This document shows, one piece after another, positions 8,726-61,553 of a stretch of 64,000 nucleotides of DNA. Where the stretch lies: the IMG/VR virus record IMGVR_UViG_3300035498_000877, positions 96,001 to 160,000 of that record. The stretch is one strand, 5' to 3'. A program made the translations under genes and the position numbers. The stretch's first letter is position 1. The number at the start of each line of letters is the position of its first letter. The notes below the pieces were generated by a model. It saw nothing but the letters and a program-made list of their open reading frames with translations, did no database searches and was not told where the DNA came from. This DNA is from a virus. Its lineage: Duplodnaviria > Caudoviricetes.

Positions 8726-9096
8726 AAATCAGTGCTCATGTAAAACCTTTTTAACTGCCGGGAACTCCATTAATCATAAATAACTGCAGCTAGTAGTGAT
8801 ACATAGTGTAGCAATATACATAACGGTATATGGATAGTAAAATCATTTATGATTGGATAATCATAGGCAGCCAAGTATCTATATTTATATAGATAAAGGT
8901 TCAGAGACTATCGGCCAACTATAATATGCGAGAAACTCGGTATTAATAGTCATTAGAGTAGATCTATCACGATAGATAGACCACCAATCTTGGCAGGAAG
9001 TGGAGTAATTCGAAATGGAAGGTGGGGGATATCGGTAACAGGTATTCTCTGAAGATATAGTCCAAAATTAAAGTTCTAACCCCAGTAAAATCGCTG
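8726..9096 (+). ncRNA. Group I intron (371 nt, no ORF) in the RNAP beta' gene
   Basis: Exon ends in U (GGU) paired with G in P1 (CAUGGGU/GCUCAUG); P10 AUCAGU with GCUGAU; P actgccgggaa, Q ggcagccaag, R gttcagagacta, S aagatatagtcc; terminal G9096; splicing gives DGMG-ADYDGD. Confidence 0.93.
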
Positions 9097-10500
9097 GCTG
9101 ATTATGATGGCGATGTACTTAGCTTAAGGGGTATATGGTCCGATGAAGCTAATCAAGAAGCTGAAGAGATCATGAATAAGAAAATAAGTGTATTAAATAT
9201 TACTGGTACTAATGCTAAAGGAGTATCTAAGGAATTAGTAAACTCTATGTACGAATTAACTAAAACTATGAAAGGATCTAGATCAATCAATGAAGAAGAA
9301 ACTAAAGAATTACTTAGTATTAGTTTTAACGATATTACTAGAAGTAAACTTGCAGATTGGTTTGCTGATACAGTAGATTGTTCAGTAAAGAATCAAGCAG
9401 GTAAAAGACATTCTAGGTTTAATACATGGGATCTAATGAATGTTCCTAGAAATTATTTTTATGATGGACAACCTGCATTGACTACTACTGTAGGTAAATT
9501 TGTGTACAATAAATTTGTATTGGAAGCATCTGGAATTATTGGTGCAGTAGGATATATATCTGATACTATCAATAAAGGCAAGAATGGTGATATTGATAAT
9601 CTAGTAGGAGATCTTTTATTGAATGATAAAATTAATAAGACTCAATTCAATAATTATATTGATAGAAGAGATACTTTAGGTTATTGGATAAATGGCATGT
9701 TAGCACATACAATATCTGAAAAGATGCTTAAGCCATTACCAGAAGTTGAGAAGAAGAAAGCAGAATTAATTAAAGCACATGAAAAAGAATTAGCTGAAGG
9801 AAATATTGATGTAATGACTCAGATAAGTGATGAGCTTGTTTCTTATGCTAAAGATATACTTAAAGATGATCCTGGCATGGATCTATATACTTCGGGTGAT
9901 CTTGATTTTGGTAACAATTATAAATGTAATTCAATATTGAAAGGTGCTGTAAAGAATGAGATCACAGGTGAATATGATTTTATTGGATCATCATTTATGG
10001 ATGGTATTGAAATTAAAGATATTCCATCACATGCAAATTCAATATTGGCATCTCAATATCCTGCATCAATTGCAACTAAAGATGCTGGTTATCTCGGTAA
10101 GAAATTATTAGCATTACTTCAGATGATGGAATTAGATGAACCTGATACTGATTGTGGTACTAAACAATTGGTACCAGTAGAAATTACCAAATCTAATAAA
10201 TCCAATATGATATATTCATATATAGATGAGGGTGGCGGAAAACTCACTATGCTAGATAATTCTAATATTGGATCATATATTGGAAAGACTGTTAAAATGA
10301 GATCTCCTATGACATGTACTGGTCAAAAGATATGTTCTAAATGTGCTGGTAAACTATTCTATATGATAGGAGCTGAACATATTGGATTATTTGCAGTACA
10401 GATTTCACATGCTGATCTTAACTTGGCATTGAAAGCTAAACATGATGCATCAGTAAAACTTCATGTTTTTAATCCTGATGAAATCCTTGAGGATATTTAA
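9097..10500 (+). CDS. rpoC: RNA polymerase beta'-like subunit, exon 2 (catalytic DYDGD, bridge helix, Zn site)
   Basis: ADYDGD is in frame with the 9172 ORF; TKDAGYLGKKL, DCGT, RSPMTC and CSKCAG motifs. Spliced product about 936 aa. Confidence 0.9.
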   Translation, partial: ADYDGDVLSLRGIWSDEANQEAEEIMNKKISVLNITGTNAKGVSKELVNSMYELTKTMKGSRSINEEETKELLSISFNDITRSKLADWFADTVDCSVKNQAGKRHSRFNTWDLMNVPRNYFYDGQPALTTTVGKFVYNKFVLEASGIIGAVGYISDTINKGKNGDIDNLVGDLLLNDKINKTQFNNYIDRRDTLGYWINGMLAHTISEKMLKPLPEVEKKKAELIKAHEKELAEGNIDVMTQISDELVSYAKDILKDDPGMDLYTSGDLDFGNNYKCNSILKGAVKNEITGEYDFIGSSFMDGIEIKDIPSHANSILASQYPASIATKDAGYLGKKLLALLQMMELDEPDTDCGTKQLVPVEITKSNKSNMIYSYIDEGGGKLTMLDNSNIGSYIGKTVKMRSPMTCTGQKICSKCAGKLFYMIGAEHIGLFAVQISHADLNLALKAKHDASVKLHVFNPDEILEDI

Positions 10501-11796: not shown

Positions 11797-13136
11797 GGGG
11801 TTCATTAAAATCCCTAATACAAACTATATTAACAACATTTCCAACAAGTGAAATTACTGAAGATGAAATAAATGATATGTACTATCCACCAAATGTATAT
11901 GGTTTTAGTATAGATCAAACAGCAACCAACTCAGATAGTGCTATATCATATATTGGGCAGAATGTAAATTATACTGCAGCACAAAAGACAGATGCTTACG
12001 TATTTGATTATGGGGATTGGAAAGATGCATTCTTTATAAAGAATCTTAGACCATGTATGTTGAATTATGATGGTACTGAGGCATATCTATTAGATCCAAA
12101 TGATTATAGTAAGAAATTAGATAGTACTGATTCAGATATAGATAATAGTGATTTTGCTGGAAATGTAATGGTAGGAATACCAAAAGTATATTTTAAGATA
12201 GTTAAAGTGGATGATGATCATATCAATTTTTATTTTTCAGATAAGAAAGTAGATGATAACTATCATTGTTGGGCTCATATAAATAACTATGGTGATGAAG
12301 TACCATATTATTATTTATCAATATATTTTGGGCAACTTATTGATGGAAAAATAAGATCATTTTATAATTCTAATGGACGTGAAACTAATTTTAACTTCGA
12401 TACAGGTATAAATGATTCTGGTATAGTTGATTATTATGAAAAAGGTAACAATATTAAAGATTATGCTATGGCAAATAATATAAATGGTAATAATATTTGG
12501 GGTTTAGAAACATATAGTAGTTGGTTATTAATCACGTTATTGTCTATTTTGATATTTAAGGATTCTGATATATCGGATATATATCGTCCATTTGGTTCAA
12601 CATGCATCTGGGGTAATTATCCAAAACTTATTAATGGATTTTTATTTAATATTCAGAATAGACAATTTCTAGTAAAACTTACATATGGTACTCAAGATGG
12701 TAGTACTGTAGAAGGATATAATTTTGCTGGAGATGGATATATTGAAGGCCCTATATTATCTTCTGCATTTGATCACCAAGATGACTGCAATAATACATAT
12801 TGTACTGCTCATGTTAACACTGACTATGGAGTTGATATAGGAATAACCGGTCGAGTGTCAAAAATGAAATTCACTGAGCAAGGTATTATGTTTCCAGTGG
12901 AAAGTATGCACTTTGAAGATGATACTGCGTATCGTTTTACAATATTTGCAGAATATGGTGATGTGTATGGTGACCCAATTACAGATAGAAATACGTTATA
13001 TTGTCTCGCTAATGGAAATTGCGCACTTAGCAGTAACGAAAAAATACCATATAATATGATATTTATTGGGAGTATATTTACTAATTTTTATTGTAAAACA
13101 TCTTTAATTTGTCTACCAAAAATCCAGACAAAATAA
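11775..13136 (+). CDS. Putative receptor-binding/tail-fibre protein resembling Firmicute phage DGR-target (C-type lectin-like) proteins
   Basis: VYGFSID...FDYGDWKDAFF...RPCMLNYDG...NVMVGIPK...WAH motifs; C-terminal CLPK; same leader and N-terminus (MSKKY) as the 1353-3353 fibre; G9 tract at 11792-11800. Confidence 0.6.
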   Translation: MSKKYLGGGSLKSLIQTILTTFPTSEITEDEINDMYYPPNVYGFSIDQTATNSDSAISYIGQNVNYTAAQKTDAYVFDYGDWKDAFFIKNLRPCMLNYDGTEAYLLDPNDYSKKLDSTDSDIDNSDFAGNVMVGIPKVYFKIVKVDDDHINFYFSDKKVDDNYHCWAHINNYGDEVPYYYLSIYFGQLIDGKIRSFYNSNGRETNFNFDTGINDSGIVDYYEKGNNIKDYAMANNINGNNIWGLETYSSWLLITLLSILIFKDSDISDIYRPFGSTCIWGNYPKLINGFLFNIQNRQFLVKLTYGTQDGSTVEGYNFAGDGYIEGPILSSAFDHQDDCNNTYCTAHVNTDYGVDIGITGRVSKMKFTEQGIMFPVESMHFEDDTAYRFTIFAEYGDVYGDPITDRNTLYCLANGNCALSSNEKIPYNMIFIGSIFTNFYCKTSLICLPKIQTK

Positions 13137-17922: not shown

Positions 17923-17955
17923 AAAAGTAGTGAGGATTTATTCCTCACTACTTTT
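17923..17955. terminator. Bidirectional terminator
   Basis: aaaagtagtgagga...tcctcactactttt. Confidence 0.8.
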
Positions 17956-18184: not shown

Positions 18185-19198
18185 ATGAGCAAGTATATTA
18201 AACTTCATACATTATCAGTTGGGTATAATATAGATTTAGGACAACAATTTTTTGATTTATTACATGAATATGATGAGTATATACATTCATATTTTTTCTC
18301 AGTTCATGAAAGATTTTATAACAATCCAAATCAACCTGAATTACAATATGATGATGTTATTGATAACTTAGCATTATTAAATACATATAACTATCCTGCT
18401 AATTTATTGTTCAATAATTATAATAATAAAAATTTTGAAATATATAATCATACTATTGATAAATTACTGAATGTTGGAATTAATATAAAAGCAGTAACTG
18501 TATTAGATCTTGATCTAGCAAAATTAATAAAGACTGATTTTCCACAATTAGAGATACATTCATCTGTTAGATATTTTGATACTTATTTAAGAAATTATAT
18601 GAATCTAACACCAGTTAATTTCATAGATCATATTAATGATTTCATTGGATTAATTGATGTGGTAAATCTATCTGGTACATATAGTATGTTTGATTATGAT
18701 ATTCAAAATAAATGCAGAGAGCTTGGTTTCAAAATTAAGTATATTACAAATGAAGGATGTATTAGAAATAGAGATCTGAATTATTCAAAATTTAAAGGAT
18801 ATGAAAATAATAAATGTTATAACCCTGATAAAGGATGCCAAATTTTATGCACAAATAAATTAGTTAAATCATATCCATGGTTAGAACTAGCAAGAGCTAA
18901 TTTATATAAAGAATCTATTCAATATATTGATTATGATATTCTAAAAATATCTGGTAGGAATATATCAGATATTAATAAAATCAGATCAATGTTGAATTAT
19001 TGGACATCTGATGATGGAACTAATTATATTGCAAACATATCAATGTATAATGATATTAATACATATAATATCTTTAAAGAATACATAAGGGATTCTGCAA
19101 CATGTAATGGGATGTGTAAAGAATGTAGAAAATGTGAGAAATATTATAGTAGGATGATTTTAAGTTCAACCAAATATGAAAATATATATCAAAGATAG
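18185..19198 (+). CDS. Peptidase U32-family (Fe-S, TIM-barrel) protein
   Basis: AVTVLD, LEIHSSV, ITNEGC, C...C...C, LKISGR; extra C-terminal CxxxCxxCxxC. Confidence 0.7.
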   Translation: MSKYIKLHTLSVGYNIDLGQQFFDLLHEYDEYIHSYFFSVHERFYNNPNQPELQYDDVIDNLALLNTYNYPANLLFNNYNNKNFEIYNHTIDKLLNVGINIKAVTVLDLDLAKLIKTDFPQLEIHSSVRYFDTYLRNYMNLTPVNFIDHINDFIGLIDVVNLSGTYSMFDYDIQNKCRELGFKIKYITNEGCIRNRDLNYSKFKGYENNKCYNPDKGCQILCTNKLVKSYPWLELARANLYKESIQYIDYDILKISGRNISDINKIRSMLNYWTSDDGTNYIANISMYNDINTYNIFKEYIRDSATCNGMCKECRKCEKYYSRMILSSTKYENIYQR

Positions 19199-19225
19199 TA
19201 GTGAGTAATTACTCACTACTATCTT
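19192..19225. terminator. Bidirectional terminator (perfect palindrome)
   Basis: aagatagtagtgagtaattactcactactatctt between convergent U32 and radical-SAM genes. Confidence 0.8.
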
Positions 19226-19232
19226 CTATAAT

Positions 19233-20351
19233 TTAATTTATTGATGGATCAATTGTGCATTTACCAACTTTAATCCTATGAACATGTTTTGTTTCTTTAT
19301 ATGATTGAATAATATTTGTTTTTGATACTTTATATATGAATTTATTTCTAATAAAATCAAATGTTGATAATATATCTTCTTGAATTGGTCCCAATCTACT
19401 GATAGACGAATGATTACAACCACCTAATCCCATTACTATATTATTTTTAACAATATCGATATTACTATCCATTACTACTTTTGAATTTATAAAGAAATCT
19501 CTATAGCTTCCATTTTTTAGTAAATGATAAGGCTCTTCACCATAATCAATTATGTCTCCAATATTAAGTGATAGAGATGAATCTTTTTCTAAAGAATATT
19601 CATCAGTACTTAACACAATATCTTTTAATAATTCTCTAAACTTAATTGATTTTAGATAATATTTATCAACTCTAAAATTAGGAATGGAACATATTTCATC
19701 AGGTTTTAATTCATTAATGCATTTATTCATATCATCAACATAAATATCCCATCCCATATCATTATCATAATTAAATAATGCAACTATATCAATATTTGCA
19801 TATCTATCATTTTCATGGAAAATATCAATAGCTTTCTTCAATTTATCAATATCATAGGGTATTCTATTTTGTTGTTTATTTGATTTTAAATCAAATGACT
19901 GAATACCAATACTCAATCGCTTAATATCCATATCATTAATTAAAAATGATAAAAATTCATCGGTTAAATCAATAGGATGAACTTCGAATGATATATTAGT
20001 CGTATTATGATATCCAGGAATATTATTTATTATTTCAATCAAAGCATCTTTATTCCATAATGATGGAGTACCTCCACCAAAATAAATTTGATCCATTTTA
20101 ACAGGAAATACATCTTTCATATTCTGAACTAAAGATACTACACTATCTTCATATATTTTTATTTTATCTTTATATTCATAATATTTGTTACTGCCAAATG
20201 CACAGAATTTACATATTGATCTGCAAAATGGAAAATCTATATATAATTCAAATTTGGTATCATCAGTTATTGGATATTCATTGAAATATCGTTTCCAATA
20301 TTCTATAAATTCACCATCATTATGTAAATAATAAGGATAATCTTTATTCAT
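19233..20351 (-). CDS. HemN-like (class C-type) radical SAM protein
   Basis: LYIDFPFCRSICKFC, IYFGGGTPS, FEVHP, RLSIGIQSF. Confidence 0.88.
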   Translation of the reverse strand: MNKDYPYYLHNDGEFIEYWKRYFNEYPITDDTKFELYIDFPFCRSICKFCAFGSNKYYEYKDKIKIYEDSVVSLVQNMKDVFPVKMDQIYFGGGTPSLWNKDALIEIINNIPGYHNTTNISFEVHPIDLTDEFLSFLINDMDIKRLSIGIQSFDLKSNKQQNRIPYDIDKLKKAIDIFHENDRYANIDIVALFNYDNDMGWDIYVDDMNKCINELKPDEICSIPNFRVDKYYLKSIKFRELLKDIVLSTDEYSLEKDSSLSLNIGDIIDYGEEPYHLLKNGSYRDFFINSKVVMDSNIDIVKNNIVMGLGGCNHSSISRLGPIQEDILSTFDFIRNKFIYKVSKTNIIQSYKETKHVHRIKVGKCTIDPSIN

Positions 20352-20354
20352 AAT

Positions 20355-21164
20355 TTATTCCTTTCTTACCATATTTGCAAACTCTTTTGGATATGAGCAA
20401 TATTTTTGTAATCTACATGGTCTGCATCTATTTATCATAGAACATTCATAACATTCTTTCGGAACATAAATTTGTAAACCATGTGGGCATGAATTCTTTA
20501 ATGATCCATCTGGGTATAACGTGTATATATTAGTACAATCATAACACCAGTTATTTATTCTATCAGCAATTTCTAACTCAATATTTGATTGCCATTTATT
20601 ATATAAATTACATAGCCATTGATCAGCCGATTTATAATATGATGGATCATTTTCTTCACCAACATAATGTTCAAATTTAATACACTTAACTCCCTTAATA
20701 TTCCATGTATCAACAAGTGATATAAATTCATCTATATTCATATTAAATAAATCTTTAGTTAATGTAATCATTATAGTATGAGATATTCCATTATCTGATA
20801 TAATCTTTCGATTTTTCATCCAGATATCATATTCTTTATCATTAAATCTTTTAGAATTCCAAGATGTTGATATACCATCGAATGTTTTATATATTTCTAT
20901 TAATCTATCATTTAGAATAAGTAAATTGGTTGATATACCATTTATCTTACTGATGCCATTAATATTATTAGATTCAATTATTTCATATAATCTATCAAGA
21001 TGTGTTGTAGCTTCTCCTCCAAAGATTGTTATTTGTCCATCAAATTTATTTAATTCATATAGGAATTTATCTTTATCATAAAATTCATCTCTATCTTTAG
21101 CAAAACAATGTGGACAATTTAAATTGCAGTGCCACGTGGGCACTGCATATAAATGTTTGTACAT
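20355..21164 (-). CDS. Radical SAM protein with C-terminal Cys cluster (SPASM/twitch-like)
   Basis: CNLNCPHC, FGGE, STN; C-terminal CYDC...C...CYEC...C..C...C. Confidence 0.85.
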   Translation of the reverse strand: MYKHLYAVPTWHCNLNCPHCFAKDRDEFYDKDKFLYELNKFDGQITIFGGEATTHLDRLYEIIESNNINGISKINGISTNLLILNDRLIEIYKTFDGISTSWNSKRFNDKEYDIWMKNRKIISDNGISHTIMITLTKDLFNMNIDEFISLVDTWNIKGVKCIKFEHYVGEENDPSYYKSADQWLCNLYNKWQSNIELEIADRINNWCYDCTNIYTLYPDGSLKNSCPHGLQIYVPKECYECSMINRCRPCRLQKYCSYPKEFANMVRKE

Positions 21165-21165
21165 G

Positions 21166-22146
21166 TTAAATCTCCTTTACCCATCCATATTTAATTAGCT
21201 TTGGTTTTAATTTAAGCATTTCCTCACAATGTTCTGGTGGATAATGTTTTTTCTGTGATTGACATCCATTGCATAATGCAAACAATTCACATGATGCACA
21301 TTTTTCATTGACATGATATGCAACTGGTGGATATTGTGGCACTGGTATTAAATTATTATCATTCTTATAATCTTTCAATATCTCAGGTTGTTCTTCACAG
21401 CATCCATAATAATGAAGCTTATCATCTGTATCAACATAGCAGCATCTAATTGATGATTTACATAACATGTTGATATTCAAATTACATGCATTGAAATTAT
21501 ATTTACTTGTATATATTTCATAATCACCTAATCCAGCATCTAATATTTCCATGTATTTAATAAACATCTTATATCTTGGATATGTGACTGTACATCTACC
21601 TTGTTCTGTCGCATTATTTATTCTAACTTTAGTATTTAATCTTTTTGCCAATTCAACTGTTTTTATTACAGTATCTTCATTACTCTCATCTATTACAGCA
21701 ATAAATGGTAATGTTTTATCTGAATTTATTTTTTCTCGAAATAAATTGAATATTTCAATAAACTTATCTTCAGTAAATGGAGTATCTTTATCCCATCTTC
21801 TACTTTCTCCATAATTAAAAGATGTTGTTATTCCAACATTATCATCATTGAATAGGTCAACCCATTTATCTGGATGATAATAGAATTCTTTAAGATTAGT
21901 TGTGATTGACATTGTTCCTTTTGGTGATTGTTCATGCATAATATCCAACAATTCCCAATAATAATCTGGATCGACTAATAATGGCTCTCCTCCACTCACA
22001 ACAATAGAATTTGGTTTTATTGTTCTAATTACATCTTTTATTTGTTCTGGAACACCGTTTGTTGGATGTTTAATATATAATGATCCAGCGCTACAAAATG
22101 TGCAATCAAAATTACATAAACCAGTTACTCTGATGATTAAATCCAT
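21166..22146 (-). CDS. Radical SAM/SPASM-type maturase
   Basis: CNFDCTFC, SGGEPLL, TTN; C-terminal CASCELFALCNGC...HC. Confidence 0.88.
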   Translation of the reverse strand: MDLIIRVTGLCNFDCTFCSAGSLYIKHPTNGVPEQIKDVIRTIKPNSIVVSGGEPLLVDPDYYWELLDIMHEQSPKGTMSITTNLKEFYYHPDKWVDLFNDDNVGITTSFNYGESRRWDKDTPFTEDKFIEIFNLFREKINSDKTLPFIAVIDESNEDTVIKTVELAKRLNTKVRINNATEQGRCTVTYPRYKMFIKYMEILDAGLGDYEIYTSKYNFNACNLNINMLCKSSIRCCYVDTDDKLHYYGCCEEQPEILKDYKNDNNLIPVPQYPPVAYHVNEKCASCELFALCNGCQSQKKHYPPEHCEEMLKLKPKLIKYGWVKEI

Positions 22147-23259
22147 TTATTTAACCTCCGAATTATCAGATGTATTTATATCTTCTTCATATGGCTCGCC
22201 AACCTTGGCAATGGTCACAAATTCGTCATGATTAATTTCTTCATAACTTTTAGTGAGATCAGATATAGTAGTTCCAGTTTGATATGCATAAAATTCTGGT
22301 TGTAATATAATATTCAGTATATCAGCTGATTGATATAATTGCTTATTTCCCAATAAATCAATAATTTTATTTGATAATGATGACTCATTTGAAAAATAAA
22401 TATTGACTGGAATATATGGAATTTTTAGCATCTTAGCTATCAATATTGTAATCATTGTATCATCTTCTGGTGATGATAGAACTCCACCATTCAATCTCAT
22501 GAATAATGGGTTTTGAATTCCATTGGTTGCTATATCTATTATTTTAGCCTCAAATTCTTCTTGGGTATATGGTCCGAATGAGTATTCTTTGGTATCAATA
22601 TCTTGTGTATAAATTCCATATGGAAGTGGTTGTATTTTATATATTTCATATGGAATATTAGTACTCAAAATTGTTATTGGATCAATATATGAATCGAAGT
22701 ATTCATTATATACAAAATTAGAATTATTAAACATTGTATATTTCAATATATTTGGTAATGCAATATTGAAATTGCATGGAGTTACCTTCAATTTAGTATG
22801 ATCTAGAAAATGATCCTGTTTCTGATGGTATCCTACTATCTTACTTCGTAACATTTCATTGCGTAGATCAATTTTGAATAAACTATCAGCATCATATACA
22901 TTTACTAAAATATCTTTATTATTATTTTTTGCCCATGATAGATAATACATCAATGGAAGATATCTTTCATAATTTCCATAATATTCTGATATACCATAAC
23001 CATTAGTAATATCAGAAAAATCATAATCATTCATGTATACTGAATCAGCATCCAATAACTTATTATATTCATCAATATCATTTTTTACAAACCATGAATT
23101 TTCATCTTTGGATAATTGATCCATTTCATCAAGCGTAAGTGATATTATTTGACGTGATTTCAAATGTTGTGTTGTTTGATCTAATCGATCAATCATATAT
23201 AACTTTTTATCTAAATCAGGGGATTTATATGAATTGAGTTTCTCAGCAATTGTCTTCAT
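22147..23259 (-). CDS. Hypothetical protein of the radical-SAM operon (possible degenerate ParB/Srx-like segment)
   Basis: Tightly coupled ORF; IIDIATNGIQNPL is a weak ParB-like motif. Confidence 0.65.
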   Translation of the reverse strand: MKTIAEKLNSYKSPDLDKKLYMIDRLDQTTQHLKSRQIISLTLDEMDQLSKDENSWFVKNDIDEYNKLLDADSVYMNDYDFSDITNGYGISEYYGNYERYLPLMYYLSWAKNNNKDILVNVYDADSLFKIDLRNEMLRSKIVGYHQKQDHFLDHTKLKVTPCNFNIALPNILKYTMFNNSNFVYNEYFDSYIDPITILSTNIPYEIYKIQPLPYGIYTQDIDTKEYSFGPYTQEEFEAKIIDIATNGIQNPLFMRLNGGVLSSPEDDTMITILIAKMLKIPYIPVNIYFSNESSLSNKIIDLLGNKQLYQSADILNIILQPEFYAYQTGTTISDLTKSYEEINHDEFVTIAKVGEPYEEDINTSDNSEVK

Positions 23260-23980
23260 TTACTTGTACCTCACTTTCTTGACTCACAATTTTCACAAAT
23301 TCAGTTATAGCATCCTTCTGAACTTCTTGTGGTGCAAATAATAATGATAGAATATTATAGAATGGCAAATTCTCAATTATTCTATGCAAATAATACTGAT
23401 TATCTTTATCATTAAATAAACTGAAATATCCTGGCTCTTGGCCTTCTATTGATTTATCATATTCAGTCAATAATAATGAAAATGTATTATATCCTGCCAA
23501 GTAATATATATTAACTATTTTTATTTCATCATCCTCAATAAATGGAACATTACTCATATCAATATAATCACCATTCGTATTATATGTTTCCATTGAATAA
23601 TAAGGTAATGAATTTATAAGCCTTCTTACTTTATTAATGAAAGATTTATTATTATTAATGAATTTAATAATTTCATCTTTGGTTAATATACTATCAAGAT
23701 ATATATTATCATCTATATAAAATGTAAGTATATTTGTCCATGTATCTGAGAATATCTTAAAGCTGATCTCAATATCAGTAGATAAATATAGTTTAAGATA
23801 TTCTTCTTTATCTTCATATGAGCAATTATCAAAATTTAATTTTGGATTTGTTCCAATATTTCTTAAAAATGTTAATGCATATTTTTTCTTTTTTTCTTCA
23901 GGAACATCAAAATTCAAATTGCTCATATCGACTTCATCATCTATTGTCGGTACCTCATTAGGGATAATTACACATTTCAT
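23243..23980 (-). CDS. Hypothetical protein of the radical-SAM operon
   Basis: 245-aa ORF overlapping the downstream gene. Confidence 0.7.
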   Translation of the reverse strand: MKCVIIPNEVPTIDDEVDMSNLNFDVPEEKKKKYALTFLRNIGTNPKLNFDNCSYEDKEEYLKLYLSTDIEISFKIFSDTWTNILTFYIDDNIYLDSILTKDEIIKFINNNKSFINKVRRLINSLPYYSMETYNTNGDYIDMSNVPFIEDDEIKIVNIYYLAGYNTFSLLLTEYDKSIEGQEPGYFSLFNDKDNQYYLHRIIENLPFYNILSLLFAPQEVQKDAITEFVKIVSQESEVQVNEDNC

Positions 23981-24011
23981 ATTTTATACAACCTTCTTTT
24001 ATTTTTATTTA

Positions 24012-24620
24012 TTACTTATAGCAACCATTATTACTATGGCAATTATGATGGCAATCAGAATGACACACTGAATGGCATATTATTATTTCTTTACTTGCTT
24101 GATGGTAACCACTATTAGCCCAAGCTGTATTTAATGCTGTATACAGATCATTCATTTTGGAAATACTCATTATATCATTTGCTTTGATTTTCCCATTTGT
24201 ATATGAAGAATTTAATGTTTTTATATATGAATCCGCAAATAATGCTCGTCCACTAGCTGAAGTCATTGTACTATATGAATGTGATCCATTTCTTGAAGAA
24301 TGATATAATCTTGTATATCTCCATGTTCCAACTCTTGTCAACATATGTGTACATTCAACCAAAAATGAGAGCATTCTTGCAGCATCAGGTTTTCCTTCAT
24401 GTACACCACTACTCTCCAAATAATTTTGAATCTGTTTTCTAAATATTGTCACATTTCCAAGTGCTTCATCTATCTCTTTATATTCAGTAGAACCATATGT
24501 ATCTACTGGCAAATTTGTGCTATGGATTAATGATGATGTAGTAATAACATCATAAACATTTGTCCAAAAACCATTTATAACATCATTATGCACTATTTTT
24601 TCCTTTGTTGCTAATGCCAT
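24012..24620 (-). CDS. Protein with C-terminal (CHxx)4 Cys/His tail; candidate radical-SAM substrate
   Basis: Ends ICHSVCHSDCHHNCHSNNGCYK; first gene of the radical-SAM run; ATG at 24620 (track uses TTG 24629). Confidence 0.75.
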   Translation of the reverse strand: MALATKEKIVHNDVINGFWTNVYDVITTSSLIHSTNLPVDTYGSTEYKEIDEALGNVTIFRKQIQNYLESSGVHEGKPDAARMLSFLVECTHMLTRVGTWRYTRLYHSSRNGSHSYSTMTSASGRALFADSYIKTLNSSYTNGKIKANDIMSISKMNDLYTALNTAWANSGYHQASKEIIICHSVCHSDCHHNCHSNNGCYK

Positions 24621-24653
24621 AATTACCAAATCCTTTCATTTTTTTTATTTTAA

Positions 24654-24693
24654 AAAATACATAATAGGATTATATAATCCTATTATGTATTTT
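24654..24693. terminator. Perfect 40-bp palindrome (terminator/attenuator)
   Basis: aaaatacataataggattatataatcctattatgtatttt. Confidence 0.65.
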
Positions 24694-24706
24694 AATATAA
24701 TATTAA

Positions 24707-25216
24707 TCAACCCCAACCAGCTCTACATCTATACCATGTAGGTTGGCTATCACCTGACAGTTTGGCATATACTTTTATACAACATTCTTCGCTTGAACTC
24801 GTATCAATCCATATTTCACCTTTGTCTACAAGTGGTGCTGATGGAGCAGATGATGCTATTGTAACTCTTACACCGTTTACTCTAGCTGAGTTTCCACCAT
24901 TTGCGGTCATTGAAGTTGGATAATCGTTTAAATCATAAAAGCTACCTGTATTAGCCACTTTATGAAGACCAGTAATCATTGTATATGGATGGGTAGCAGG
25001 ATGTGGATTATTAAGTGCACCGGTTTCTATTCCAGCTAATTTAGTTTTTTCTGCATTTGTATAATCATTAATACTAAATCCAGCTTCTGTACCATTACCA
25101 AGTTTATGATTATTAGTGCCACCTGCACCAATATGGTTGGTTAGGTCAACAATATTTTTATTCCATTTAGCTCTTTCAGCTGCACTAATATGCTCTCTAA
25201 TATCTGAATTAGCCAT
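24707..25216 (-). CDS. Short tail-fibre-associated protein
   Basis: HISAAERAKWN and NDYTNAEKTKLAGIETGA fibre-shaft motifs; APSAP...GEIWIDT. Confidence 0.65.
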   Translation of the reverse strand: MANSDIREHISAAERAKWNKNIVDLTNHIGAGGTNNHKLGNGTEAGFSINDYTNAEKTKLAGIETGALNNPHPATHPYTMITGLHKVANTGSFYDLNDYPTSMTANGGNSARVNGVRVTIASSAPSAPLVDKGEIWIDTSSSEECCIKVYAKLSGDSQPTWYRCRAGWG

Positions 25217-25222
25217 AGTTTA

Positions 25223-28200
25223 TCATCCTTTCTTTTTCAAATTTCTTAATGGGCTTACTGATAGCATATTTCTGAATTTTTCAATAAATTTATCAGCTCC
25301 AGTTCCAGCAATCTGTATACCAACATCATATGCATTGCCTCTATCATATTGAGATAGAGTTAACCCATTACCTTCTATTTTATCAACTGCGTCAGAAGAT
25401 ACAGTTACAGTTGCGGTATATGAAGATGTATCAAGCATAAATGAACGCATATTTGCATCTCCCGATATTGAATCTGGTATAGTAATATCCTGATTGAATG
25501 ATGAGCATTTCCATAAGAAATGATCAAGACATTGCCGTCCAGATACTCCTGGATGTATTATAGTACTACCTTCAGTCTTCTTATCTGGAATTGTTAATGG
25601 TTTATTAAATGACGTACATCCATGCAAGAATTTCATCAAACATTTATCTCCAGTTACACCACTAGGTATTGTAAGATCTTGATTAAATGACGTACATCCA
25701 TCCAGAAATCCTTCCAAGCAACGTTCTCCAGTTACACCGCTAGGTATGGTAATTGCTTGGTTGTATGATGTGCATCCTTTTAAGAATCCTTCAAGACAGC
25801 GTGCACCAGTTACACCGCTAGGTATTGTCAATGACTGATTGAATGATGTACAGCCAGCCAAGAAGTTTCTAAGAGAACCTCCTCCAGATACAGAGTCTGG
25901 TATTCTGTCAATAGATGTTAAACTTGTAAAGTTTCTTGCAAAGTTAGCTAATGATGTAATACTATATGTTTCCGGATTATCAATTTCTTTTTCTTCATAT
26001 TCATCTGGATCACCTGGATTAACTTTGTCTTTCAGTTTTTTCTCTATAACCTTTGAGCTCCAGAATGATATTTTAGTTACCTGATTCTTAGTAAATGATG
26101 ATCCACCTGCTGTTATAGTAGTATTTGCTGGTAAATTATTACTTAAATTGTATATTTCTTCTTCATTAAAAATGGATACAGTATTATTGTTGCTAAGAGT
26201 CAATTTTAAAACTTCATATTTATGAGTTGAAGGAGCATAAAAGTTAATATTAAAGTCTTGCGTATAACTTTCTCCAGTATGCTTATAATATTTATGCTCA
26301 TCCTTAGAAACTTTGTTGTATGCAGAGCCATCCCATTTATAATATTTATTATTAACATTGGATGCCAGTATATTATTATATATTTTATTAGAATCTGGAG
26401 TTATTTCATCTTTATATGCCGAATTATCAGAATCATATGATGAATAAAATGTACCTTTATACAAATATCCATTCTCAACATCTTTATCAAATTTTCCAGT
26501 TGCATACCATGTGTATTCTTCTTTTGTTCCATTTGCAACAGTAGCTCGAATTTTACATGTTCCAGCTGCAGTTGCTGTCAATACTCCATTACTAATTGAA
26601 GCATTTGTTGATCCTTTATCAACTATTGACCATGATACATCTGAATAGCTAGGAATTTCAGTATCATATGTTTGAGTATCCCTAGCAACAACTGATAAAT
26701 TAGTTTCACATTCAGGGCCTAGTACCATTCTAACATTAGTTGGGAATGATGAAGGTATATTAATAATATCTGCTACTGGAATATATTCTGGAAGGAATGT
26801 TACAGTTCTAAATGTCTCATAATTAACATAACTAGTCTCTCCGGCATCATTTACTTGCTGAATTGCTGATGCTGATTGGGTGACTTCATAAAAATCTCCA
26901 TCTTCAAAATTATAGAAGTAATCATAAGAATCTTTACTTCCCTCAGGAGCTTTATAATCCCAATCATATTCAGAATCCATTGTAACATTATAAGTTTCTT
27001 TCCATGTTGCCGCATCTTGTGTATAAGGCAAAAATTGTAATCCCATTCCACCAGTGGCATTTAATAAACCATTATCTGGATCTCTATTATTATCATTTAT
27101 ATTCCTAGAATATGAAATTATTATACCACCATCACCAGTTGATGCATTCCATGGATCTTTCTCTGCCATAGATAATATTATTGGTCTCTTAGCTCTAATG
27201 ATAGAAGGATATTCCAACTTAACATTTTCAAGATTAATATGTGCCGATGGAGCATCAGGAAATATTAATACAATTTCTACCTTAAATTCAGCATCACTTT
27301 TATTTGCACCGCCACCTTTAACAGTTGCTTTCAATTCTACAGTTTTATCATCAAATGCTTCTATATAAAAACTATCCTGAGTATCATCTTCACTACTAGA
27401 GTTAACATAATCAGGATTTTCTTCCCACCATGTTACAGAATCAGCTGCGATTGAAAGTGTTTTAGTATTTTTATCAAATGTAACATTGGCAGGAGTAGGA
27501 TTAACTAATTCCCATTCAATTGTTTTGACAGATGCAGTAGATGGTGAAACTGTTGCACTAGCTAATGAAAGTGGCTCTGATACTTTATCCCATGTACTAG
27601 GAACACCTGATATACCCTCAGCAACAATAAATGCACCATTGACACTAATTGAAAATTCTTTAGTAAAATCTTCTCCTATTGCTTTACCATTTTTTACAGT
27701 AGCTGTAATTTTTGCTACACCACTTTTAGTAGCAGTAAATATTCCATCATCATACAAAATAGCATCAGTTGATCCTTTACTCGTAATAGCAGCTGTTACA
27801 TTTGTATATGATGGATAATTGGTAACTGATGTATCCCATGATGCCACAAATTTAAGTCTACAAAATTCTCCTGAATTATATGAACCATTATATCCAGTCA
27901 TAATAATATCATTTATTGGATAATATTTATTTATTACCTGTATATCAAATACTTCTACATAGTCATATATAATTTTCGTATATGTATTTTTCTCTGCTGA
28001 ATACATGTATCTATCAGATGATGTGGCATCAATATAAATCTTATACTCTTCACCAGCAATTTCTGTTGTATAACTAGCATCTCTATAAAATTTATTACTG
28101 CTAGATACAAAGTACCCATTAACAGTCTCATATGCAGATCCCTCATTAGGTCTTAAACCATTCTTGATGGTTGCTTGTACTCTTAAATATCCAATATTGC

Positions 28201-30004
28201 TAGCTCTTAATACCTTTGATCCATTTCCTGATGCAGTTAATTTTGCTGATGTAGAAAATACATTATTATTATATAATAATTCCCAGATAATTTCTTTCTT
28301 CTCAGCATTGCTAGGTTTAACTGTTCCTGATAAAATATAATCAGTATCTGTTTCAATTACAGTTGGAACATTTTCAATACCAGTGACTCTAACATATTGC
28401 TTTATATCAATATTAAGAGTATCACTAAAGATTTCCCCATTAACAGGTGCTGTTTTTGCGACTATAGTTGATCCAGTAATATCTTTATCAATATGGATAT
28501 ATCCATGATTATCACGACTGAAATTTCCGCTACTATCTTTTGCTGAAGCAACTGGGTAATCATCTAATGCAACTATTAATGTACCTTTTTCATCCAAACG
28601 ACATAATTGATCATCAGTCTTAAGGTACCATGTTATTGATGGTAAGTCTGCATCGGTTGGAATTGGATTTGCAGTTAATTGGTATTTATTTGTTATTTCA
28701 TACACTGACGTTGATGAAGTAATTTTAATACCAGTTAATTTTGGTTTTACGATAACCTGTGAAATGCTTGTATAAACATCATTTGCACCGGGGCTAGATA
28801 ATTTACAGAAATAGTAGTAAGTTCCAGATGTTGTTGATTGAGGAATCACGTATGTCGAATTTGTTTCTCCCTCAAGCAATGTAGCACCGTTAGTACTATT
28901 AATGCTATTTCTATACCATTGATAATATATAACATCACTTGTTGATTTAGCGACAACTGATAATTGTTGATTTATATTATCAAGAGTAATATATGAATAT
29001 GATGATGGATTGGTAACAATTGTTATTACATTCTTTTTAGCAGTAATTGTAAAATCTTGTGTAAAATTAGATTTAACATTATTTGATCCATTGACTGCAT
29101 TATTCAAAGTAGCTCTAATTTTAATTGTACCTGCAGTATTTGTTAAAATTATATTATCATTGATAGCGGCAGTACCTGATACTACCGACCATATTATTGA
29201 TGATACTGAAGCATTATATGGAACCACCTGTGCCCCTGATAAATTATATGGAACTCCTGTTAATATTTCTGCAGGAACATCAATTATCTTTGTTACAGAT
29301 ACAAATGGTACATCATCGATATAATTCAAACGAAAATAAGCATTTTGACTCATATATACTAATATACATGGAGAATTTGCTGGATAAGATGAATTCATAT
29401 CAAATAATACTACAGCACAATCTAAATTAGTTTTTACAACTTGGGGATTCGATAGTTTGATTATAGTTCCATCACCCATTTGTACACCCCAATGTGATGA
29501 ATCCCGAGATATATAAAATTCAATATTGGGAGCTTGAGGGGGATATGAAAATGTTGCTAATAATTTATCAGTATTACCATTTTCATCAGTAGTAGCTCCA
29601 TAGTTATTAGTTGTGAATGCGAAATTTCCTGATGCATGCTGTTTAAAAGTAACCTGCTGATCATCCTGATATGAAATCTTAAATCTAGCAGTATCACTTC
29701 TATATACTAATAAACACGGAGAATTAGATGGGTATGATTTACTCATATCAAACTGAACAATCGCACTATCTCTATTAAGATATAAAAGTACGGGGTTTGA
29801 AAGGGGGATGATAGAACCATCCCCCATTTGTGCACCCCAGTCATTATTATCAGTACTAATATGAAAATTTATATCAGATGGCTGATGGGGAAATCCAATC
29901 GAAAACATGCATTTACTAACTTGACCATTAGTATCAGATAATCCACCAGATATGCCATCAATAGTAAATCCACAATATCCAGTTTGTTTATTAATGACTG
30001 CCAT
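25223..30004 (-). CDS. Large adhesin/tail protein with multiple Ig-like (Big_2-type) domains and C-terminal BspA/DUF285-like LRRs
   Basis: Repeated VxPxNAxxKxIxW...G...I.AT Ig motifs; YQWY Ig; 26-aa FLxGCTSFNQxLTIPSGVTG repeats. Confidence 0.78.
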   Translation of the reverse strand: MAVINKQTGYCGFTIDGISGGLSDTNGQVSKCMFSIGFPHQPSDINFHISTDNNDWGAQMGDGSIIPLSNPVLLYLNRDSAIVQFDMSKSYPSNSPCLLVYRSDTARFKISYQDDQQVTFKQHASGNFAFTTNNYGATTDENGNTDKLLATFSYPPQAPNIEFYISRDSSHWGVQMGDGTIIKLSNPQVVKTNLDCAVVLFDMNSSYPANSPCILVYMSQNAYFRLNYIDDVPFVSVTKIIDVPAEILTGVPYNLSGAQVVPYNASVSSIIWSVVSGTAAINDNIILTNTAGTIKIRATLNNAVNGSNNVKSNFTQDFTITAKKNVITIVTNPSSYSYITLDNINQQLSVVAKSTSDVIYYQWYRNSINSTNGATLLEGETNSTYVIPQSTTSGTYYYFCKLSSPGANDVYTSISQVIVKPKLTGIKITSSTSVYEITNKYQLTANPIPTDADLPSITWYLKTDDQLCRLDEKGTLIVALDDYPVASAKDSSGNFSRDNHGYIHIDKDITGSTIVAKTAPVNGEIFSDTLNIDIKQYVRVTGIENVPTVIETDTDYILSGTVKPSNAEKKEIIWELLYNNNVFSTSAKLTASGNGSKVLRASNIGYLRVQATIKNGLRPNEGSAYETVNGYFVSSSNKFYRDASYTTEIAGEEYKIYIDATSSDRYMYSAEKNTYTKIIYDYVEVFDIQVINKYYPINDIIMTGYNGSYNSGEFCRLKFVASWDTSVTNYPSYTNVTAAITSKGSTDAILYDDGIFTATKSGVAKITATVKNGKAIGEDFTKEFSISVNGAFIVAEGISGVPSTWDKVSEPLSLASATVSPSTASVKTIEWELVNPTPANVTFDKNTKTLSIAADSVTWWEENPDYVNSSSEDDTQDSFYIEAFDDKTVELKATVKGGGANKSDAEFKVEIVLIFPDAPSAHINLENVKLEYPSIIRAKRPIILSMAEKDPWNASTGDGGIIISYSRNINDNNRDPDNGLLNATGGMGLQFLPYTQDAATWKETYNVTMDSEYDWDYKAPEGSKDSYDYFYNFEDGDFYEVTQSASAIQQVNDAGETSYVNYETFRTVTFLPEYIPVADIINIPSSFPTNVRMVLGPECETNLSVVARDTQTYDTEIPSYSDVSWSIVDKGSTNASISNGVLTATAAGTCKIRATVANGTKEEYTWYATGKFDKDVENGYLYKGTFYSSYDSDNSAYKDEITPDSNKIYNNILASNVNNKYYKWDGSAYNKVSKDEHKYYKHTGESYTQDFNINFYAPSTHKYEVLKLTLSNNNTVSIFNEEEIYNLSNNLPANTTITAGGSSFTKNQVTKISFWSSKVIEKKLKDKVNPGDPDEYEEKEIDNPETYSITSLANFARNFTSLTSIDRIPDSVSGGGSLRNFLAGCTSFNQSLTIPSGVTGARCLEGFLKGCTSYNQAITIPSGVTGERCLEGFLDGCTSFNQDLTIPSGVTGDKCLMKFLHGCTSFNKPLTIPDKKTEGSTIIHPGVSGRQCLDHFLWKCSSFNQDITIPDSISGDANMRSFMLDTSSYTATVTVSSDAVDKIEGNGLTLSQYDRGNAYDVGIQIAGTGADKFIEKFRNMLSVSPLRNLKKKG
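25560..25930 (-). repeat. Coding tandem repeat, ~78-bp unit (LRR)
   Basis: ccagttacacc(g/a)ctaggtat recurs at ~78-nt spacing. Confidence 0.7.
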
Positions 30005-30019
30005 AGGTATTCCTCCTTA

Positions 30020-33000
30020 TTAAAGTTCTTTAATTGTATAATAAGCTTTGTTGGTTCTATATACAAGTTGACATGGAGAATTAGAAGCATACCAGTTATC
30101 ACCCAATGAGAATTCTGCAACAACACTTGTACTAGTTGTTGAGATTGTTGCTGAATATGTTGCTGGAATAATTGTTCCATCACCCATCTTAAGACCCCAG
30201 CAATTTGTATTAGTTGCAAAATCAACAGTAATATCATTTGCTTGCTGACTGAAGTTAATAGTAATCCATGCTCTATTAACATTTCCAGATGTTGATATAC
30301 CACCAGAACCTTGAGTGGTAACACCATTATATCCAGATAGTTTATTTATAACCGTTTCGTCGCTAGTATCTTCAGCTGGATTTGGGTTAGCCCCAATAGT
30401 GAGTCCACCATTAACAAGTAATCCAGTACCAGGAACAGGATTGATCAATCTCCAATATGTTCCATCAAATACAAATACATGAGTGAAATTCTTTCCAATC
30501 ATATAATTTGATACTGCTTCGCCAGCATATATAACTTTTGCTGCTCCAGTTCCATTGACATCCAACGTAGTATTATTATCTTTTCCACTTCTATCTTCTT
30601 CATCAAATGTTAATGAAACAGTACTACCAATTTGACGAATAAATACAACTGGATCCATATAAGTTGAAACCAATGTTGCAATCTTAGCAGCTGTATATTT
30701 ATCAGTATGACAATAACCTTTTGCAACACCAACAGCATTTCTACGTACCCACTCAGAAGATACAATTGAGTTAGAATTATCAGAGTCTTTTAATGTCTGA
30801 ATACCTGTTGGATTTTCAAGGTTCCAATTAGTTCCATCATATGTGAAAAGATAAGTATAACCAGCTCTTATCATCTCTGATAAAATATTCATTCCACCAT
30901 ACTTAATAGGCTTAGGTCCTGAACTCTCAAGGTCAGGAATATCAAGATAATAAGTATCACCAGTTTTACCATTTGCACTATCAGCTTGTTCTTTAATCGC
31001 ATCTTTACTAAATGTGATTGATACTGTAGATCCTTGCTGCATCATAAATACTGCAGGTTTAACAAACCTCATATCAAGTACTACTGTCTTTATTTTTACA
31101 TCTGTATCAGTATCACATCTACCAAATGCAACACCAACAGCATTACGTCTAACCCATTCAGTAGTTGCAATTCTATTATCATTAGAATCATCTGGAGCTA
31201 TAACAGCTCTTGGTTCTCCAGTCATTTCATACTGATTATGTTCAACATCAGGCCAATGAATAGGAGCACGAGAAATATCAGTAGGATGCCTATGATCTCC
31301 TCTAGCATAATATCCATCATCTGTACCCTTAGAAGGAGATCCATCCATCAATGGTTCAACATCAGTTGCTCTGGTATGTCCAAATACTGATACCGTTGCT
31401 CTACCAAATGTAGATCCAGAAGGAGATGTATGAACTCTAGGAGCTTTAATCTCATCTAAATATCTACCCATATTAGCTGATAATGCTGCTAATGAATCAG
31501 TAGAGTCCAGATTATCTATAACCTCAAGTCCTTCCATATCATTAATGATTTGAATGACATCGTCAATATCAGCTTTCTTAGCATTCAATATTCTACCTTG
31601 ATTTGCTGATAATGGTCTATCAGTCTCATATGATATAAGATTATCAATTACGGTATTATGAACATATTCAGTTGTAGCTATTCTGGTAGATACATCAGTT
31701 GCATTCTGTGTTGTTGTAGTAGGTGATCCTTTTAGATGTACTGACTGAGCAATTTCTGTTTCCGTAATTGAATTAGGAACAATAGTTGCTTTGATAGTAC
31801 ATGTATCCTGATCAACTTCTACATTGACATTAGTACTTAATGAACCCATATAAATTCTAATAAGTGAAGATAGATCTACTCTACGTTCACTTCCATCTGG
31901 CAATACGAGTACTAATTGATTTTCAGCTCTATCACAATATGTCTTCTCAAATATCTCAGCAATTGGGACATGTACTTCTAATAATGACCCATCTCTATAT
32001 TCATAAATAACAGAGCATTTATTATCATCCCAAGAAGCATTGACAAAAGCATTATAAGTATTAATATCACTAGTAAGTGCCTTGATGTTAGTTGTTAATT
32101 TATCAAGAGCAGCTTGTACTGCTGTAGATATAGGTTTATCCATATCTGAGGTATTATTAACATTGCCCAATCCTAATTGATCAGCTGTAACATTGTGAGG
32201 ATTATCAGTATTAGTAACATGATTGTTGAATGTAGATAATGGAACTGCACCAATCTGAGTAGCTGTTGTCCTGTGAGGATTATTGAAATCATTGATATGA
32301 TTAAACATATCAATTTTAGCTTCATCAAGTGCAGATATCTTCTCTAATATAGAAGTAATATTATTATTTGTAATCTCAAATTGCCTTGTGACAACTTTCT
32401 GGGTTACAAATCCATCTTCATTCTCACCAAGTTCATTATACCATTCAGGTCTATTCTTTATATCTGACCAATCTACCACATTAGCAGGCAATGTTTGACC
32501 AGCTAAAGCCATATCATTAAATATATCAATAAGATCTCTCCAAGTAGTATCATAGTTTTCATCAGATATCTTAATAAGTAACTGACCAGATGTACCACCA
32601 ACTGGAACACCTTCACCATCTTTTCCATCTACATAATCAACACCTTTAACAGGAGTATATCCATCAGCTCCTTTAATATTAACTGGTGTAGGTGCTTCAT
32701 CTACTTCTTTAGATAATGACCATGATAAATTAAAATCTTCATCTACTGAAGGGTACCATACTTTATCACTAACTCCTGATCCACCAATTGCTTCATCGTT
32801 TGTTTCTCCAGAGAATAATTTAATAAATCTTCCCTGTACCCAAACATACATTGTTGTTTCAGGATATTTAATTACCATATCACCAGGTGTCATTGATTCA
32901 AATCCAACTTCTTGCCATGCTTGTCCGGCCAATTTAACATATATAATACAATCTTGAGTTTCATTCGTCTCATGATCAGTTGCAGGTATTAATGCAAAAT

Positions 33001-61495: not shown

Positions 61496-61553
61496 TATTT
61501 GTTTTTCTGAACGAGATGATAACATAGAAAAATAAATTACGGAGGTGAATACA

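Follow-up and report, generated by a model that had tools for sequence, protein, structure and literature searches.

Triceptides are three-residue cyclophane RiPPs (peptides synthesized ribosomally and then modified post-translationally) made by radical S-adenosylmethionine (SAM) enzymes of the rSAM/SPASM type, such as YhhB, AmcB, GrrM and XyeB. The CXXX-repeat families (the maturase TIGR04115, TIGR04116, the target TIGR04117, and Pfam PF27846, tSAM_targ_Cxxx_rpt) have a bioinformatic definition only, and the literature yielded no paper on "tSAM" or CXXX-repeat targets. Radical-SAM enzymes are also known to act on whole proteins. In the HXS system, His-x-Ser repeats are the sites at which HxsB and HxsC, together with HxsD, mature the protein HxsA (PMC13128918), and in the CrpC/CrpA system of Methanococcus voltae a SPASM radical-SAM enzyme installs thioether (ranthionine) links on an adjacently encoded, Cys-rich substrate of protein size (PMC13692751). 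Here we describe a related-looking locus in a window of 64,000 nucleotides, bases 96001-160000 of the 289,234-bp IMG/VR phage record IMGVR_UViG_3300035498_000877, which is rated complete. In it, the gene for a protein with a Cys-His tail (G) is followed by genes for two proteins without a Pfam or NCBIfam match (F and E), two radical-SAM enzymes with SPASM-type Cys motifs (D and C) and a HemN-like radical-SAM enzyme (B), and a divergent U32-like gene (A) converges on them. We think it rather probable that a phage protein-maturation cassette, which modifies the C-terminal tail of G before virion assembly, is made up of genes G to B and probably also of A.

To our knowledge, radical-SAM chemistry is not known to mature any structural protein of a phage. 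The cassette takes up 6-14 kb in hundreds of large phages, cultured carriers being phages of Ralstonia, Burkholderia, Pseudomonas, Agrobacterium and Sinorhizobium; it is thus widespread yet unstudied. We found no paper in the literature that explains it. Genome papers list the radical-SAM genes as accessory only, one of them calling their number "highly unusual" (PMC12390700), and two jumbo-phage reviews make no mention of them.

Conservation of the tail beside radical-SAM genes

The C-terminus of G has the form (CHxx)4-NGCYK, its full ending being CHSVCHSDCHHNCHSNNGCYK. A run of two or more CH.. units occurs once among the 674 open reading frames (ORFs) of at least 50 amino acids (aa) in the whole 289-kb genome. 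A search of IMG/VR with a profile of the D family returned 306 relatives, and 84 loci were examined for tails. An ORF with the pattern CH..CH..C is present in 61 of these 84 loci fetched through the D family, and most loci that lack one are short fragments. The initial annotation had proposed to test the co-occurrence of the tail gene with these enzymes, and had counted homologous enzymes without a Cys-tail gene as a refutation of its reading; the comparison shows the reverse of that refuting case.

The tails are highly regular. Exactly three repeats are found in 49 of the 56 unique tailed proteins, and the distance from the last repeat to the C-terminus is 0-7 residues in 55 of the 56. A typical tail reads (C-H-x-S)3-RGRR, RGRR being the commonest ending. 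Position 1 of the repeat is His in 170 of 175 units, and position 3 is Ser (124 units), Asn (28) or Asp (11), together 163 of 175. The bodies of the tailed proteins are only 10-28% identical to G, which indicates that selection acts on the tag.

Gene order is conserved as well. The order radical SAM, tailed gene, F recurs from phages of Ralstonia, Pseudomonas and Agrobacterium to the low-GC phage of the window, and the cassette occurs across hosts and at GC contents of 26% to 55%. The best C-like enzyme directly adjoins the tailed gene in 37 of 54 loci, and the gene after the tailed gene is an F homologue in nearly all loci compared. Homologues of D with 29-35% identity are encoded by the cultured jumbo phages RSF1, RSL2, SURPRISE13, DT01, Atu_ph07 and Phosso and by FLC phages; in the three that were examined (RSF1, Atu_ph07 and DT01) they sit in clusters of several radical-SAM genes, and the gene next to that of the C-type enzyme, on its far side, encodes a protein with CHxSCHxSCHxx and then R-x-R-R at its C-terminus. 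Compared with the cassette in these phages (RSF1 ORF070-082, Atu_ph07 gp165-172, DT01 054-067), the window has the D-type and C-type enzymes, the CHxx tail and F in synteny. Its closest relatives, the IMG/VR loci L005 and L007-L009, keep the order fibre, H (a small fibre-like gene), tailed gene, F, E, D, C. On these comparative grounds, the position of the tail gene beside homologous radical-SAM genes is not due to chance.

Syntenic tailed homologues of G are present in L005-L009. A word-based sequence search with G recovered only G itself, and among cultured phages BLAST found no match, nucleotide or protein, to the region, G or A; the homology of G to other tailed proteins is visible only through synteny, alignment and fold. 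The body of G was predicted by AlphaFold2 as a confident alpha/beta fold with a predicted local distance difference test (pLDDT) score of 80.7 (44-sequence alignment), and the tail, from residue 186, is of low confidence and disordered in the model. The fold has no match in the PDB; it matches a 178-aa protein of DT01 (TM scores 0.64/0.72), Atu_ph07 gp170 (E 5e-3) and proteins of uncultured phages.

The Atu_ph07 match provides a link to the particle. The tailed ORF of this phage was identified as gp170 from its computed mass of 31.894 kDa. Mass spectrometry of purified Atu_ph07 virions detected gp170 with 8 peptides and 35% coverage, and gp165-169 and gp171, which comprise the radical SAMs and the F homologue, are absent from the same virion table (PMC6102473 Table S5). 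G is thus probably a virion protein as well, and it is the probable substrate of the enzymes. The initial annotation had regarded the tail as a core peptide fused to a folded, probably structural, protein: the folded body of G and the virion presence of a homologue agree with this, and the chemistry on the tail is putative.

Several variants of the tag were observed. In L060 and L062 (5301-5954) the tail is CHSSCHSSHSSRNRR, in which the third Cys is lost and the H-S-S unit is kept. At L038:6012-6716 the tail has expanded to some 17 CHxx units grouped in blocks with NVPV between them, the RGRR end being kept. The tailed proteins at L007:6643-7902 and L008:6564-7871 are 419-435 aa long and carry a leucine-rich-repeat, adhesin-like insert (HupY/LrrG model, E 8e-12), after which comes a C-x3 run of six units, most of them CHxx. 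In L006 the ending CHGSCHCARW is shared by a fibre-like protein, one of three paralogues, and the tailed protein of the cassette (CHVNCHHSCHCARW), the two genes concerned being at 8977-9906 (minus strand) and 11930-12760 (plus strand), and this suggests that the tag may move between proteins. In L010 (IMGVR_UViG_3300021426_000113), a D homologue with 39% identity lies amid only short ORFs under translation table 11, which suggests stop-codon recoding or poor assembly.

Genes and setting of the window locus

All seven ORFs of the initial annotation, A to G, were recovered at the coordinates given there, and the minus-strand run that it described, from fibre genes through the tailed protein, two unassigned ORFs and two radical SAMs to a HemN-like radical SAM, is present. 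The features are as follows.

30020-33799, minus strand: fibre-type gene, 1259 aa, matching tail-fibre PHROGs (E 5e-15)
25223-30004, minus strand: fibre-type gene, 1593 aa, without a PHROG match
24707-25216, minus strand: H, 169 aa, fibre-like, with weak tail-fibre PHROG matches, directly upstream of G
24012-24620, minus strand: G, Cys-His-tailed protein, 202 aa, starting at ATG 24620
23243-23980, minus strand: F, 245 aa, all-helical predicted protein, the conserved partner gene
22147-23259, minus strand: E, 370 aa, found in the low-GC subgroup only
21166-22146, minus strand: D, radical SAM, 326 aa, the marker enzyme of the cassette
20355-21164, minus strand: C, radical SAM, 269 aa, orthologue of the enzyme that is usually directly beside the tailed gene
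19233-20351, minus strand: B, HemN-like (class C type) radical SAM, 372 aa, an accessory of the subgroup
19191-19226, no strand: hairpin of 15-16 bp between the convergent A and B, resembling a bidirectional terminator
18185-19198, plus strand: A, divergent U32-like protein, 337 aa, convergent on the operon

From G to B the genes overlap or are separated by gaps of 0-31 nt, and those from E to B lie within 3 nt of each other. The start of G at 24620 is preceded by AAAGGA 10 nt upstream; from TTG 24629 the protein would be 205 aa long. Between H and G, at 24650-24683, there is a perfect inverted repeat with a T/A-rich run, a possible terminator or attenuator, and genes G to B may therefore have their own promoter. 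Both large fibre-type genes have homologues upstream of the cassette in L005, where the homologue of H is 60% identical; H is found at the same position in L007-L009. Scans with Pfam, NCBIfam and PHROG models identified no protease or transporter family in the operon, in agreement with the initial annotation.

The GC content of the window is about 30%. Nearby are multisubunit RNA-polymerase genes that are split in the phiKZ manner, and the source is therefore a jumbo phage. The genome also encodes NrdG, the activase of the anaerobic ribonucleotide reductase (192 bits, cut-off 126), and a split NrdD, the reductase itself, which points to an anaerobic or facultative host. NrdD adjoins NrdG (G000:C1:244057-246934 of the record) and is matched in four pieces in two frames (587 + 455 aa), an interruption that is probably an intron or intein.

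The motif Cx3Cx2C, which is expected to hold the Fe-S cluster, is present in B, C and D. Against the Pfam Radical_SAM model (PF04055, cut-off 29.5 bits), B scores 56.2 bits, D 53.3 bits, and C 28.2 bits, or 29.8 with neighbouring hits. In the alignment of D, the motif CNFxCxFC (Cx3Cx2C) and eight C-terminal Cys with SPASM-like spacing are all invariant. The alignment of C shows Cx3Cx2C and seven conserved C-terminal Cys, which include Cx2Cx5Cx2C rather than Cx2Cx5Cx3C (conserved Cys at 13, 17, 20, 210, 226, 238, 241, 247, 250 and 256). SPASM/twitch enzymes are defined by 7-8 C-terminal Cys (Cx9-15Gx4C ... Cx2Cx5Cx3C ... C) that bind auxiliary 4Fe-4S clusters. By the Cys patterns kept in the alignments C and D are SPASM-like, and no SPASM model matched either. 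The best NCBIfam model for D is HxsC (E 1.4e-8, 34 bits, cut-off 267.9), and its nearest curated models are protein or peptide maturases, namely HxsC, AmcB, YhhB and DarW, with GrrM also near. B matches the NCBIfam models HemN, HemW, HemZ and ChuW with E values of 1e-17 to 4e-20 (60-72 bits, cut-offs 205-504) and the PDB structure 1olt with E 1.3e-9 over residues 31-163 only. Judged by these scores, B is HemN-like, as had been claimed, and not a HemN equivalog. B was found in four loci; it occupies the same position, after C, in L007-L009 and is absent from L005.

Neither E nor F has a match in Pfam or NCBIfam. Homologues of E are confined to L005 and L007-L009, where they occupy the same position, and a profile of E shows no similarity to F or to the families f7 and rSAM6. 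The F family, in turn, is present in 61 of 85 loci and comprises 738 representative clusters with E values up to 1e-3 (647 up to 1e-10) among 1.84 billion proteins. F was predicted by AlphaFold2 to be all-helical (pLDDT 87.7). Its fold has no relative in the PDB or the ESM Atlas (Foldseek E > 0.8, VIA Z up to 3.8, Atlas TM up to 0.34), and a candidate match to ChlB (9gm3) with Z 3.3 is noise. Long forms of F (391-604 aa) were considered as fusions with the tailed protein, which was ruled out on examination. The F profile shows no similarity to the D profile. The co-fold score of F with G, 0.12, counts neither for nor against binding.

The U32 assignment of A is distant. Its match to Pfam PF01136, the peptidase U32 family that includes UbiU/V, TrhP and RlhA (E 0.012, 15.3 bits over 31 residues), is below the cut-off of 22.4, and no NCBIfam model matched. 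The ESM Atlas gives better support than sequence: a feature score of 0.95 to a viral cluster with PF01136 in 28% of its members, and structural TM scores of 0.58-0.60 to clusters of TrhP and U32 collagenase. A is accordingly regarded as a divergent U32-like Fe-S protein and a candidate O2-independent hydroxylase. Of the convergent U32-family gene of the initial annotation, the convergence on B holds, whereas family membership is only distant. A single homologue of A was found in the fetched loci (L030:18689-20017); it shares two Cys motifs with A and is placed at the end of a further cassette of tailed protein and radical SAMs, on the same strand. A second, related hairpin (17923-17955) precedes A, the core common to both hairpins being AGTAGTGAG...CTCACTACT, and A is a single-gene unit bracketed by two related long hairpins.

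U32 proteins such as UbiU/V and TrhP carry out oxygen-independent hydroxylation. Most relatives of the window locus have 3-9 radical SAMs per cassette, and their accessory genes encode 2-oxoglutarate (2OG)-Fe(II) oxygenases (52 loci), cupins (38 loci) and a 145-aa protein (55 loci). The window phage has only C and D of the core radical SAMs, plus the HemN-like B and the U32-like A. No match to 2OG-FeII_Oxy_5 (PF13759) was found anywhere in the 289-kb genome. Accessory families 2, 3 and 5 are absent at the window locus, the common accessories elsewhere being the RGRR end, the 2OG-Fe(II) oxygenase, the cupin and the f2 protein. With fair confidence, we regard the window locus as a reduced, oxygen-independent version of a widespread large-phage cassette. 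Since U32 proteins hydroxylate without oxygen, a swap of O2-dependent for O2-independent tailoring enzymes may reasonably be supposed from this gene content, which comes from few loci. The initial annotation had placed the modification under anaerobic conditions, and the system is not specific to anaerobes: most relatives are in phages of aerobes and carry genes for O2-dependent 2OG and cupin enzymes. The window thus offers a natural comparison, with a minimal two-enzyme core and O2-independent accessories; it narrows the essential set to C, D, F and the tail, and it hints at the genes that do the O2-dependent tailoring.

Proposed maturation of the tail and alternative explanations

In the proposed mechanism, the flexible C-terminal C-H-x-x repeat tail on the folded G would be the substrate, and the SPASM-like enzymes C and D would act on it inside the infected cell. 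The most plausible chemistry would be an intramolecular cross-link, either Cys thioethers or, as in triceptides and HXS, cyclophanes from His to the residue at +2. B and A could add further O2-independent changes, such as methylation and hydroxylation, for which relatives from aerobic hosts may use 2OG-Fe(II) and cupin oxygenases, and F would be an obligatory non-catalytic helper. Once finished, G would become part of the virion close to the fibre and baseplate, and the enzymes would be left out. Both the link of the enzymes to the tail as presumed substrate and the association with the virion are well supported by comparison.

A fuller version can be offered only tentatively. Here large phages would use radical-SAM chemistry to equip a portable Cys-His tag, borne by a virion protein associated with the tail or baseplate, with covalent cross-links or with a metal site derived from the peptide, and stability of the particle or contact with the host would depend on this maturation. 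The lineage of the window phage would have adapted the pathway to the absence of oxygen, the U32-like hydroxylase and the HemN-like enzyme replacing the 2OG and cupin oxygenases. Modification of the tag would add a new step to virion assembly, and a short portable tag served by a defined set of enzymes would interest protein engineers.

A number of results weigh against maturation of the tail. No SPASM model matched C or D in the Pfam scan, and both enzymes fall far short of the cut-offs of all curated maturase families. The tail of G ends in NGCYK, without RGRR, and its position 3 is V/D/N/N rather than Ser (triplets HSV, HSD, HHN and HSN). E has no PHROG or PDB match either. The predicted structure of F is not the RRE/PqqD winged-helix fold (RRE, RiPP recognition element) that the initial annotation had suggested looking for in 23243-23980, being all-helical and without a PDB match. 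A is connected to the cassette by adjacency and by one other locus (L030), and it forms a separate convergent unit between two hairpins. A 125-aa ORF upstream of the radical SAMs of RP31, on which the tail is unverified, is not in the limited, 32-protein virion proteome of that phage. Finally, the Cys/His stripe could simply bind metal, and the odd gel migration of gp170, described below, could come from disulfides.

The last two points lead to the explanation that survives best next to maturation, unlikely as we consider it: the CHxx tail would be a metal-binding module (a Zn, Fe or Cu clamp at the fibre/baseplate joint) or a disulfide module that stabilises or assembles a part of the virion, with no covalent modification, and the enzymes would be merely co-regulated late genes. 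Cys and His are classic metal ligands, at i, i+4 spacing they would line one face of a helix, and metal ions bound at His motifs are known from phage fibres, as in T4 gp37 and gp12. Disulfides could lie behind the Atu_ph07 gel, where gp170 is commonest in band 1, the top band, despite its 31.9 kDa; band 1 is the peak of proteins of 87-127 kDa, and 30-kDa proteins peak in bands 7-8 (PMC6102473). As no reductant is listed for the loading buffer (PMC6102473), the shift may reflect disulfides as well as an enzymatic cross-link. A metal or disulfide module, however, leaves unaccounted for the presence of the same radical-SAM families and F beside the tail across hosts and GC contents of 26%-55%, the conservation of Ser, Asn or Asp at position 3, and the H-S-S unit that is kept after the loss of Cys in L060 and L062.

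Next, and likewise improbable, the radical SAMs may act on another protein, for example the large fibres or H, with G and F as adaptor, scaffold, Fe-S carrier or electron carrier. The cassette is always among fibre and baseplate genes (PMC12390700), some tailed proteins hold inserted leucine-rich-repeat adhesin domains, and the L006 fibre-like paralogue shares the CHGSCHCARW end. Conservation along with the cassette, however, is seen for the tail and not for the fibre genes, and the L006 paralogue suggests a portable tag, which fits the tail as substrate. Because gp170 is in virions while the enzymes are not, it also fits a product better than a cofactor carrier.

That the enzymes serve to produce or alter a small molecule, a nucleotide, tRNA or a base of DNA, with the tailed protein unrelated, is very improbable: two dihydrofolate reductase (DHFR) genes lie inside the RSF1 cluster, U32 proteins include the tRNA hydroxylase TrhP and HemN-like enzymes act on tetrapyrroles, but DHFR is not conserved in other loci, SPASM-type enzymes with the nearest models of D are peptide or protein maturases, and the tight conservation of the tail/F/enzyme trio is left unaccounted for.

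Comparison with known systems

The resemblance of the window locus to HXS, CXXX, CrpC/CrpA and triceptides is one of "works like", not of membership, and its genes are below every curated threshold of these families. It differs from a classical RiPP cluster in that the precursor would be a folded protein of 202 aa, F lacks an RRE-like fold, and the operon holds no protease or transporter family. The triceptide motif (aromatic or His, x, Ser/Asn/Asp) fits the tail pattern H-x-[S/N/D], and the AmcB, YhhB and GrrM models are among those nearest to D. In contrast to triceptides, D scores far below the cut-off, there is no leader peptide here, and Cys is invariant in the phage tails, whereas triceptide chemistry does not need Cys.

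CXXX-repeat targets resemble the tail in having Cys as each fourth residue of a C-terminal repeat and in their position beside SPASM radical SAMs. An Atlas cluster near G has PF27846 in 19% of its members, and TIGR04117 weakly touches the L007 tail (E 0.69). Unlike members of these families, C and D have no TIGR04115 match and G has no TIGR04117 match; the tail of G is CXXX by pattern.

Outside the window, about 47 kb from the cassette, the same phage encodes a 746-aa TIGR04115-like radical SAM (L090:658-2898, minus strand, corresponding to G000:C1 at about 69.5-71.8 kb; E 1.7e-98, 330 bits, cut-off 350), with an intein inside the cluster motif (Cx3C|x2C). Its orthologue in L005 (14441-17692, minus strand) contains two inteins, at a distance of 3 kb from the cassette. 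The window closes (61545-64000, on to G000:C1:160529) with a 994-aa protein whose middle part of about 410 aa contains 89 Cys, 68 of them in C-x3-C steps. It has only weak TIGR04117 matches and is likely to be a second radical-SAM target in this phage.

CrpC/CrpA is similar in that a radical SAM acts on a whole protein encoded nearby, and differs in being archaeal, with one enzyme that has an RRE, a substrate that is Cys-rich throughout, not tagged with a short terminal repeat, and no virion role (PMC13692751). HXS is bacterial, defensive and periplasmic, with a repeat period of 3 and no Cys (TIGR03976-03979; PMC13128918), whereas one relative has the phage protein in its virion; among NCBIfam models of HXS members, C matches neither HxsB nor HxsC, and F and E do not match HxsD, none of the searches having shown F to resemble HxsD. 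Nevertheless, in HXS too, paired radical SAMs and a small helper mature a folded protein at short His-x-Ser repeats (PMC13128918). That system likewise needs no RiPP-type protease or exporter, the best curated match of D is HxsC, and most phage tails are C-H-x-S repeated three times.

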